4,062 nt of DNA from a virus (lineage: Duplodnaviria; Heunggongvirae; Uroviricota; Caudoviricetes), in the IMG/VR virus record IMGVR_UViG_2671180852_000012; one strand, written 5' to 3'. Positions 2,426 to 3,932 of the stretch are shown in pieces. Within the stretch, counting starts at the first letter, position 1. Every line of letters starts with the position of its first letter. A program made the translations under genes and the position numbers. The notes beneath the pieces were generated by a model that had not been told where the DNA came from, did no database searches, and worked only from the letters and a program-made list of their open reading frames with translations.

Positions 2426-2535
2426 TATTCATTCTTCCAGATTCCTTCCGGCAGAGCCTTATACTGAAATATACCTGGCTCAGGATATTGTTGAAAATAT
2501 TTTATGTTTGTCAAAAATAAAAGTTCTGTTAAGTA

Positions 2536-2889
2536 TTGATTGAGTGTTTGTTATACGGTCTAATGGTTTTTTCAGCATTAAATATTTATCATTCATATGG
2601 TGTGGGTAGAGTGAATATTGATGAGGCGTCGGGGTGTTTCATCCTTAGGCAGCGTATTGATATAGTCAATGCAGCACGAGCAAAGGCCTTCAGCCGTTTG
2701 ACAGTTTTGTTCTGTACTCCTGATCGTCTTTCGGGAAGAGACGTTATTATTCTGAATAGTGATGCTATACAGAGGGTTTGCGATGAGTTCATGGTTGCTA
2801 ATTCAGAATTATTTGCTCTTGTTCAGGAGTACAACAGAATAGCCAGGACCTGTGGTATGGATGAACTTCGGATTACTCATCTGGGGTAG
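2536..2889 (+). CDS. Hypothetical protein in AT-rich cargo region; start codon uncertain
   Basis: 354-nt open frame in AT-rich DNA, where stop codons are frequent by chance. Translation looks protein-like and not low-complexity. No convincing Shine-Dalgarno at the TTG at 2536; alternative starts are ATG 2563 and GTG 2602 or 2611. I do not recognise the family. Confidence 0.4.
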   Translation: MIECLLYGLMVFSALNIYHSYGVGRVNIDEASGCFILRQRIDIVNAARAKAFSRLTVLFCTPDRLSGRDVIILNSDAIQRVCDEFMVANSELFALVQEYNRIARTCGMDELRITHLG

Positions 2890-2969
2890 ATACATATCTG
2901 GATTATCACCTGTTACGGTAAAAAGTGATTGCTTACTGTTTTTGTGAATGGCATTGCAGCAGCCGGATA

Positions 2970-3056
2970 ATGTCAGTGCTGGCTGACGGTGTGCTGGTGG
3001 CGGGTGTGGTGGTTGCTGCTTTCCCGTTGCTGAAAAAGAAAACGCCAGACTGTTAG
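2970..3056 (+). CDS. Candidate small hydrophobic peptide (28 aa, MSVLADGVLVAGVVVAAFPLLKKKTPDC)
   Basis: A hydrophobic stretch followed by KKK, the general shape of small membrane peptides or type I toxins. Frame is open back to a GTG at 2925 (43-aa alternative). Ribosome-binding site is weak, so it may be chance. Confidence 0.2.
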   Translation: MSVLADGVLVAGVVVAAFPLLKKKTPDC

Positions 3057-3280
3057 CCGGGTATCAGTTAGCGGGAGAAATTTTTAAATACTTCACAATT
3101 CAGGCGGTTGACTGTTGTCTGGTTTGCGGGGAGTTTGTTAAAAGAAACTGGCATGGTGAATCCCCCTGTGCGGAGGGGCAATCAGCGAGTAGGTATATGG
3201 GATAATCGCGGATTCAGGTGCTGGTACTGAATTCACCGGGAGGCACCCGGCACCATGCAATGGCACATAGCGCCACTCTC

Positions 3281-3317
3281 CAGCCCCTCTCCGGAGGGGC
3301 TGTTTATATTGATTTTG
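3281..3317 (+). terminator. Rho-independent terminator at the convergence point of + and - strand cargo genes
   Basis: Perfect 9-bp stem CAGCCCCTC (3281-3289) / GAGGGGCTG (3294-3302), loop TCCG, followed by TTTATATTGATTTTG. The T-rich tail is only on the + strand. Confidence 0.65.
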
Positions 3318-3336
3318 TCAGATGTGAGTAAACTCC

Positions 3337-3672
3337 TTATGGACTTTGTTGTTTTAGTCCATAAGGACATATTTGCAGAGTGCAACGGTTATTAAAGCAT
3401 TCATTCAATACGTTATCTGTATTTGTAGGGCATTCCTGGCTGTTTTTGATTAAATTCCAGAATGTTTTATTGAATGGTACTACGTTGTAAATGGTTACAG
3501 GTAGCACTTTGTTATTGAGCATGATGCCTGTGTGAGTCAGTGTAAATATACTTTCAGGAGGTAAGAAAGCATCCGATTGATACCAGATTATTAATTTTAT
3601 TTTACTCCATATGACTGAAAAAGATATTCCGCATGATGGCTGGATAACTGTATCAATCACAATCCACTTCAT
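3337..3672 (-). CDS. Hypothetical protein (111 aa), minus strand, AT-rich moron-like gene
   Basis: ORF has a good ribosome-binding site on the minus strand (AGGA about 6 nt before the ATG, read as CAAGGAAACTAA-ATG). AT-rich codon usage; several Cys in the C-terminal half. Family not recognised. Confidence 0.5.
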
Positions 3673-3712
3673 TTAGTTTCCTTGTTTATGCCTTGCTGGT
3701 GATGTTCTGAAA

Positions 3713-3739
3713 AGTATAAATGATATTTTTGATTGTAAA
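3713..3739 (-). promoter_or_regulatory. Candidate promoter for the minus-strand 111-aa ORF
   Basis: Read on the minus strand: TTTACA (plus-strand 3734-3739), spacer of 15, TATACT (plus-strand 3713-3718), about 40 nt upstream of the ATG. The spacer is short. Confidence 0.25.
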
Positions 3740-3932
3740 CCATAGAGCAGAATTATTTTTCTGATGTTGTTTATTGTTTATTTAAATGCAGGGTGGTTTA
3801 TATCTCGTCTTGTAGTTTATCCATGCATATCTGCTTGATAATCAGGTTTTTATTTAAGGTATGGTTTTGTGTTTTTTCTGTATTACATGTCAGGTATTTT
3901 AAAGAATTATTTTTCAGATGGTGGAAAGAACC

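Follow-up and report, generated by a model that had tools for sequence, protein, structure and literature searches.

An AT-rich prophage segment at and beside the stxAB position very probably represents the iraL locus of lambdoid prophages

The IMG/VR virus record IMGVR_UViG_2671180852_000012 (Caudoviricetes) includes a stretch of 4,062 nucleotides (nt), hereafter the window, in which an AT-rich segment at positions 2502 to 3932 precedes the lysis genes of a lambdoid prophage. A first-pass annotation, made from the sequence alone, had described this segment as cargo of unknown function at the position occupied by stxAB in Shiga toxin phages. The open reading frames (ORFs) that it listed are all present: a plus-strand frame of 117 codons opening with TTG (2536 to 2889), a hydrophobic plus-strand peptide of 43 amino acids (aa), and a minus-strand ORF of 111 aa. 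The description of these features as unknown did not hold, as the 111-aa ORF was traced to the anti-adaptor gene iraL, the peptide (here tciB') to the DUF3927/TciB-like family, and an accompanying hairpin to the prophage small RNA (sRNA) STnc100; the 117-codon frame contains a conserved gene of 92 codons, here ORF92. The segment is very probably the lambdoid-prophage iraL locus that the potB-island prophage of Escherichia coli CFT073 also carries, and would form a mosaic of three modules, with the late-operon tRNAs on one side and the lysis genes on the other.

The 111-aa ORF is identified by its sequence as IraL, a characterized anti-adaptor of RssB. All 111 residues are identical to those of CFT073 protein WP_000871291.1 (c1429), annotated at the potB-island prophage, and c1429 is the iraL gene of CFT073 (PMC12890032); positions 2426 to 4062 of the window are 99% identical to this prophage. 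With the NCBIfam model NF007393 (anti-adapter IraM), residues 1 to 110 scored 162 bits (cut-off 121, E = 4.7e-48), and residues 1 to 78 could be aligned to the IraM structure PDB 8twd (E = 9e-32). Identity to IraM of E. coli K-12 was 62%, and the 66 identities counted are consistent with the published value of 58.9% (PMC4045071). The good ribosome-binding site noted in the first-pass annotation was confirmed as AAGGA, located 8 nt before the ATG. In CFT073, IraL binds RssB and stabilizes RpoS in logarithmic phase, on the evidence of two-hybrid, co-purification and RpoS stability assays (Hryckowian et al. 2014, mBio, PMC4045071). The gene is not found in laboratory strains and is enriched in uropathogenic E. 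coli and Shigella, with two copies reported in strain JJ1886 (PMC4045071); in agreement with this, two places matching the segment were found in JJ1886.

For iraL of CFT073, the sequence obtained by rapidly amplifying 5' cDNA ends (5'-RACE) is ACATCACCAGCAAGGCATAAACAAGGAAACCA (PMC4045071). It matched positions 3705 to 3674 of the minus strand at 31 of 32 positions, placing the transcription start at 3705. The window and CFT073 differ at three positions in the iraL 5' region (3675, 3706 and 3733), and the lone mismatch falls on one of them. A sigma-70 scan of the segment did not pick up the iraL promoter and returned only sites at chance level; the hexamers listed in Table 1 are our own assignment. 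Nucleotide homology with K-12 iraM was confined to the coding region (3353 to 3674, 70.6%), and the DNA upstream of iraL is unrelated to that upstream of K-12 iraM, which agrees with the published point that the two genes are differently regulated (PMC4045071). A PhoP-box-like direct repeat, TGTTTATTGTTTATTTA (one mismatch), which CFT073 shares, is located on the plus strand at 3768 to 3784, 63 to 79 nt upstream of the iraL start site. The K-12 iraM gene is PhoP dependent. As a scan of the window for PhoP boxes gave one match where 1.5 were expected by chance, PhoP control of iraL is not claimed.

The 3' end of iraL coincides with a 12-bp hairpin that covers the stop codon. When minus-strand RNA from 3390 to 3300 was folded, a free energy of -20.4 kcal/mol was obtained (z = -4.3), and none of 200 shuffled sequences was as stable. 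This hairpin probably serves iraL as a terminator or 3'-end structure. Part of it consists of the codons of a four-residue C-terminal extension, QQSP, that IraM does not have, and the extension may thus serve formation of the RNA 3' end rather than the function of the protein.

The first-pass annotation was correct in placing a hairpin terminator in the segment, as a GC-rich hairpin followed by a T-run is present at 3281 to 3302, but it had missed the 190-nt sRNA to which the hairpin belongs. This structure is assigned to the 3' end of STnc100 (Rfam RF02076). Using cmscan, the full model (1 to 206) was matched without truncation at 132.4 bits, the gathering score being 47. The terminator consists of a 9-bp stem with seven GC pairs followed by TTTATATT, and the terminal hairpin also appears in the minimum free energy fold of the RNA (-74.6 kcal/mol, z = -2.3). 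An alignment of seven STnc100 copies revealed a conserved block that begins approximately 30 nt before the Rfam start, at about TCACAATTC, and is kept even in phage 933W, whose sequence diverges further upstream. Because this block precedes the Rfam start in all seven copies, a putative promoter could be placed at TTGTCT (3115 to 3120), an 18-nt spacer and TGtTAAAAG (3136 to 3144), reaching into the Rfam span. STnc100 is known as a multi-copy prophage sRNA; in EDL933, eleven copies are transcribed, one of them confirmed by Northern blotting (PMC5331693). Binding of RpoD at STnc100 has been reported in Salmonella LT2 (PMC10794520), and the RNA was recently related to the PasD family of prophage sRNAs (bioRxiv 10.64898/2026.05.13.724894). 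In Stx2 phages STnc100 sits 75 nt after stxB (PMC12370729), a spacing that was confirmed in 933W, where stxB2 ends at position 3703 of the record used here (L009) and STnc100 occupies 3778 to 3983. As it follows stxB2 in 933W, so it follows other cargo in phages Nil3, JLK-2012, vB_EcoS-640R1 and mEp460.

Two further observations concern this sRNA. RefSeq records annotated with PGAP carry an "incomplete hypothetical protein" pseudogene on the minus strand at approximately 3141 to 3266 of the window (6639 to 6764 in record L001 and 18270 to 18395 in record L005). It lies wholly inside STnc100 and is probably a mis-annotation of the sRNA. In vB_EcoS-640R1, two STnc100 copies (3561 to 3754 and 4030 to 4218 of record L008) stand in tandem upstream of iraL. 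Each is about 77% identical to the type of the other, a sign that cargo may have been exchanged repeatedly at this sRNA.

The 43-aa peptide matched Pfam PF13064 (DUF3927) with 92.7 bits against a gathering threshold of 25 (E = 1.3e-26), and phrog_1470, "TciB-like," over residues 12 to 40 only. Full-length TciB proteins (50 to 54 aa, from phage JLK-2012 and contigs L011 and L012, the latter two described below) contain two hydrophobic segments, of which tciB' retains only the second by alignment and hydropathy. The first helix is replaced by 11 unrelated residues, MIAYCFCEWHC, and nucleotide homology to tciB of JLK-2012 begins at a junction at 2957 (blastn). From the single retained helix, the unrelated N terminus and the position of this junction, tciB' is judged to be a truncated, chimeric derivative of TciB. 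The arrangement expected of TciB, with two helices and a neighboring TerB-like tciA, is not seen here; tciA was missing from the window and from all 80 related IMG/VR contigs.

The 117-codon frame also required revision. A real gene is present, as the first-pass annotation had it, but comparison indicates that the conserved coding region is the 92-aa ORF92, starting at a GTG at 2611. A profile search of 1.84 billion representative sequences yielded 21 relatives, several of 91 to 95 aa that aligned to positions 26 to 117 of the longer frame, and relatives with as little as 21 to 40% identity keep both length and frame. The aligned start of these proteins falls on the GTG, and homologs have a Shine-Dalgarno sequence at the matching place (AGGAGtagaGTG in L011). 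The motif before the start codon is AGGAG in L011, AGGGA in L012 and GGGTAGA in the window. Against a homolog with 56% identity (L004), codons 26 to 117 had a ratio of nonsynonymous to synonymous substitution rates (dN/dS) of 0.27 and an excess of third-position changes (43 versus 24 and 23), values that point to purifying selection on ORF92; codons 1 to 25 had a dN/dS of 0.69 and no such excess. Residues 1 to 92 matched phrog_2873, a family of unknown function, at profile positions 17 to 108 of 108 (E = 5.6e-58), and all nine aligned homologs also matched this family. An AlphaFold2 model with a mean predicted local distance difference test (pLDDT) score of 88 showed a helical hairpin, with helices at residues 3 to 33 and 50 to 81 and a conserved TPDR loop. 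That the 117-codon frame might be a chance opening in AT-rich DNA that encodes nothing is suggested by its TTG start, the lack of a Shine-Dalgarno sequence and of any database annotation, and a third-position GC content of 0.24 in the first 25 codons. These points, however, hold only for codons 1 to 25; for codons 26 to 117 the distant homologs, the third-position excess, the PHROG match and the confident model contradict it, and for 2611 to 2889 the idea is refuted by the comparative evidence. For the frame as a whole we give it almost no credence.

The first-pass annotation had itself named homology to well-characterized families as grounds for rejecting its reading, and the searches gave this outcome for the main gene, the 111-aa ORF; they linked the 92-aa gene only to phrog_2873. 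Nothing significant was found for ORF92 in Pfam, NCBIfam, PADLOC or a PDB profile search, and a Foldseek comparison of the model with PDB and BFVD returned generic helical hairpins (EmrA, prefoldin, BAR domains), none with E <= 0.001, so that no function was drawn from them. An identity with TciC of P1 or another annotated phage protein was rejected, as a tblastn search of 50,697 phage records found only mEp460_ev081. A literature search on the CFT073 locus tags c1427 and c1428 found nothing on ORF92, and the gene has no PGAP annotation in the RefSeq records of E. coli 042 and CFT073.

ORF92 was encountered in five independent contexts, in each case after the antiterminator gene or late-operon tRNAs and, where the contig is long enough, before the holin gene; three of its loci came from a profile search of genome contigs, and a second scan of viral contigs with the distant homologs returned only the Citrobacter prophage already found. 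In L011 (JAEWMQ010000075.1) the order is methyltransferase end, ORF92, tciA, tciB and holin, and in Citrobacter braakii (L012/L093) ORF92 is likewise followed by a TerB-like tciA, tciB and holins. L011 itself is a 2.7-kb contig labeled as a "Bacillota bacterium" metagenome-assembled genome, has the appearance of an enterobacterial-type prophage late region, and was probably binned wrongly. L094 carries a Q-like gene, tRNA-Thr, ORF92 and a holin gene, while in L004 (Logan SRR29325574) the end of a methyltransferase gene, an AraC-like gene, the ORF92 homolog and STnc100 follow one another. The 241-aa AraC-family regulator of L004 (164 to 889) represents another cargo variant in this slot. As neither L094 nor L004 has tciA or tciB, ORF92 is not strictly dependent on them. 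In 80 near-identical E. coli-type IMG/VR contigs ORF92 was intact throughout, which is a weak test given that the contigs are 98 to 99% identical; tciB' and STnc100 followed it in all but two, and iraL was located downstream in 55, with 19 lacking it despite enough downstream room.

These contexts bear on whether ORF92 and tciB' are simply a decaying remnant of an ORF92-tciA-tciB arrangement, functionless in E. coli, with iraL and STnc100 the only parts under selection. The absence of tciA (0 of 80 E. coli-type contigs), the loss of the first tciB helix with gain of an unrelated 11-residue N terminus, and the GTG start, weak Shine-Dalgarno sequence and missing PGAP call of ORF92 all favor decay. 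However, ORF92 is intact in the 80 contigs, weak as this test is, its dN/dS against the 56%-identical homolog is low, L094 and L004 keep homologs without either tci gene, and the DUF3927 profile covers the short form at 92.7 bits. There is a substantial chance that ORF92 in E. coli is a leftover of a degraded module, and the wider proposal of a functionless pair is a serious possibility, though not the favored one. If ORF92 does act, we would guess at an accessory role associated with the membrane or with lysis, judging by its partners TciA, TciB and the holin. A fuller proposal is that a functional ORF92, as the first late-operon gene in the stx slot, acts at the membrane or on lysis timing with TciA, TciB and holin or as a lysogenic-conversion factor, or alternatively that antisense late read-through switches off RpoS stabilization by iraL; this we consider conceivable but unlikely.

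The window as a whole is the late-regulatory region of a lambdoid prophage (Table 1). The tR'-like terminator directly after Q agrees with a location of the plus-strand genes inside the late operon. The "conserved small protein before the lysis genes" of the first-pass annotation is the DUF1737 N-terminal part of nanS-p/YjhS (Pfam PF08410, E = 1.5e-15); it is 84% identical in nucleotides to the beginning of the SASA esterase gene of 933W, and PGAP flags it as incomplete in E. coli 042 and CFT073.

Table 1. Positions of features in the 4,062-nt window
Feature	Position	Strand	Remarks
Q antiterminator, C-terminal part	51-452		PF03589
tR'-like terminator	492-511		directly 3' of Q
tRNA(CAU) and tRNA-Arg(UCU), first copy	555-807		tRNA(CAU) is tRNA-Ile2/ileZ per PGAP and 933W annotation
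N6/N4 DNA methyltransferase	1074-2123		
tRNA pair, second copy	2173-2425		
Promoter-like site, weak, TTGAAA-16-AAAAAT	2491-2518	+	consensus match only, not above shuffle expectation
AT-rich cargo segment under study	2502-3932		
AT-rich leader, 27.5% GC	2502-2610	+	from second tRNA-Arg module to ORF92; holds the 25 nonconserved upstream codons
ORF92, 92 aa, GTG start	2611-2889	+	phrog_2873
tciB', 43-aa DUF3927/TciB-like peptide	2925-3056	+	
Conserved block 5' of STnc100	3092-3121	+	seven-copy alignment
STnc100 sRNA, 190 nt	3122-3311	+	Rfam RF02076
Rho-independent terminator and T-run	3281-3302	+	3' end of STnc100
12-bp hairpin over last iraL codons and stop	3334-3367	-	
iraL, RssB anti-adaptor, 111 aa	3337-3672	-	assigned by sequence
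iraL 5' untranslated region and promoter	3673-3739	-	
iraL -10 hexamer, TATACT	3713-3718	-	
iraL -35-like hexamer, TTTACA	3734-3739	-	15-nt spacer; hexamer assignment is our own reading
AT-rich intergenic region (~30% GC) upstream of iraL	3740-3932		up to DUF1737 start codon
DUF1737 ORF, N-terminal remnant of nanS-p/YjhS esterase gene	3933-4062	+	right-hand backbone boundary

Low GC content was confirmed for the segment overall (39.6% versus 51.1% in the rest of the window, z = -8.7), but the AT-richness is patchy: it is concentrated at the two ends, in the leader, in iraL (34.5%) and in the region upstream of iraL (3673 to 3932, 29.6%), ORF92 has 44%, and the middle resembles the backbone, with 51.5% in the DUF3927 ORF and 55% in STnc100. 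The segment was present at a coverage of at least 80% in 863 of 5,426 complete E. coli genomes.

Upstream of the segment, a 368-bp direct repeat (516 to 883 and 2134 to 2501, 98.9% identical) carries the tRNA-Ile2(CAU)/tRNA-Arg(UCU) module and flanks the methyltransferase cassette on both sides. As mEp460_ev081 has a single tRNA-module copy and no methyltransferase gene, the cassette appears to have come from an insertion or recombination with the module at its borders. Sub-threshold Rfam matches to Plastid-ycf2 on the tRNAs, to Yar_3 and to Trp_leader (412 to 518) were dismissed as chance or as tRNA or terminator look-alikes; the last of these, at 25.7 bits versus a threshold of 41, covers the Q-proximal pR'/tR' region and was taken as a terminator/attenuator look-alike.

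Placement at the stx position held for part of the segment: the exact stxAB slot, from the tRNAs to STnc100, comprises only 2502 to 3121, and iraL occupies the next slot, from STnc100 to the nanS-p/DUF1737 remnant. Similarity to sequenced phages breaks off at approximately 3081 to 3093, 3259, and 3301 to 3307, that is, at the edges of STnc100 or inside it. From the position of these breakpoints STnc100 is read as a conserved joint around which cargo is swapped, dividing the Q-to-lysis region into two exchangeable slots. The ORF92-tciB'-STnc100 arrangement occurs without iraL in mEp460_ev081, and STnc100-iraL occurs without ORF92 in vB_EcoS-640R1. The cargo is therefore dispensable, as is also seen in 933W, which has stx instead, and its GC content differs from that of the backbone. 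As to signals of its own, iraL has the matching transcription start and the 3' hairpin, and scanning upstream of ORF92 and tciB' yielded only the weak, chance-level promoter-like site of Table 1. The first-pass annotation's suggestion of a moron, an accessory cargo of foreign composition between Q and the lysis genes that lies in or beside the stx position, is thereby borne out, as is the idea of a moron in the sense that the cargo includes a gene, iraL, that would alter host physiology in the lysogen from its own probable promoter.

The further suggestion of a toxin, anti-defense factor or abortive-infection factor found no support, as no signature of these was seen and PADLOC gave no match with E <= 0.1 for ORF92, its 117-aa form, tciB' or IraL. 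An undescribed moron of this kind, co-induced with lysis, could be sought in ORF92, which lies in the stx slot of the late operon and has only generic helical-hairpin fold matches and none in Pfam, NCBIfam, PADLOC or PDB. Set against this, the largest and most AT-rich gene is the characterized iraL, named families account for both the peptide and the hairpin, and the segment occurs in 863 complete genomes, annotated apart from ORF92. For iraL, tciB' and STnc100 the proposal is already refuted, and for the segment as a whole it is very unlikely.

The iraL locus reading is preferred, and under it the three modules may be envisaged as follows. ORF92 and tciB' would form a first module that fills the stxAB slot, derived in E. 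coli from an ORF92-tciA-tciB arrangement by loss of tciA and of the 5' third of tciB. STnc100 would be the second, a structured sRNA of approximately 160 to 190 nt with its own terminator; expression in lysogens has been published for other copies (PMC5331693). The third, iraL, is convergent with STnc100; in the lysogen a sigma-70 promoter of its own would drive its transcription, starting at 3705. By binding the adaptor RssB, IraL would prevent delivery of RpoS to ClpXP, so that RpoS would be stable in exponential growth and general stress resistance would rise, amounting to lysogenic conversion of a host regulatory circuit. We infer by analogy with CFT073 that iraL acts alike in this host. 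The AT-rich iraL region may represent regulatory DNA gained by horizontal transfer, and H-NS possibly silences it. Lambdoid late operons are known to be read in a Q-dependent manner after induction. Here the Q-modified late transcript would, on induction, extend through ORF92, tciB' and STnc100, as for stx2, and would continue antisense across iraL.

Several points weigh against this proposal. The differences from CFT073 at 3675, 3706 and 3733 could alter iraL expression, and the assigned -35 hexamer of iraL is separated from the -10 hexamer by a spacer of only 15 nt. For STnc100, the 5' end and promoter were deduced from sequence conservation. In E. coli, ORF92 combines a weak Shine-Dalgarno sequence (GGGTAGA) with a GTG start and may, despite being intact, be a nonfunctional leftover whose partner tciA is missing; tciB' may not be expressed or inserted into the membrane.

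The locus is already known and its main gene was characterized in 2014, so that it adds no new biology; the ORF92 family is the sole part of the segment still of unknown function. The locus illustrates how a prophage, from the slot that holds Shiga toxin genes in related phages, rewires a core stress circuit of its host (RssB, ClpXP, RpoS). In practical terms, RefSeq lacks the conserved 92-aa ORF92 and calls a pseudogene within an sRNA, and the DUF3927 peptide of E. coli at this locus is a truncated TciB. ORF92 would, if functional, be a systematically unannotated small protein of a prophage type found in approximately 16% of complete E. coli genomes and a small addition to the accessory genes of the late operon.

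Comparison with the stx2AB locus of 933W shows a shared framework of Q, tR', ileZ/arg tRNAs, cargo, STnc100, nanS-p (DUF1737 N terminus) and S R Rz. The order in 933W is tRNAs, stxA2 stxB2, STnc100, AsxR on the minus strand and nanS-p, and in the window it is tRNAs, ORF92 tciB', STnc100, minus-strand iraL with its AT-rich promoter region, and the first part of nanS-p (DUF1737). Ahead of STnc100, ORF92 and tciB' thus take the place of the stxA and stxB cargo of 933W. Behind it, 933W has AsxR and a full nanS-p, and the window has iraL, on the opposite strand, with nanS-p reduced to its first part. The two STnc100 copies are 71% identical over 3093 to 3259; that of 933W scores 207.7 bits, and the window copy has a shorter central variable loop. 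Within the STnc100/PasD family the window copy is full length, retains its terminator and occupies the usual prophage position. In JLK-2012, a TciB to which the C-terminal 32 residues of tciB' are approximately 90% identical is likewise encoded just upstream of STnc100. JLK-2012 has both TciA and TciB (P1-type tci; phrog_632 TerB-like and phrog_1470), whereas the window has no tciA; the "colicin/tellurite/cell division" description of Tci is a database label and not a tested function. For phrog_2873, the present analysis contributed the location between Q and holin and the helical-hairpin model.

Among the closest counterparts is the iraL locus of CFT073, which has the identical protein and is 99% identical overall, with the promoter region, the mapped start site and the flanking DUF3927 gene, STnc100 and DUF1737 remnant included. 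Its upstream backbone differs, with IS200C and three tRNAs instead of the duplicated tRNA-Ile2/tRNA-Arg module that flanks the methyltransferase gene in the window. IraM (K-12 b1160, adjacent to e14) and RssC of Salmonella belong to the same anti-adaptor family, NF007393, as IraL. IraM and IraL have unrelated upstream regulatory DNA and differ by the four-residue C-terminal extension of IraL, which acts in logarithmic phase and contacts RssB differently from IraM (PMC4045071).

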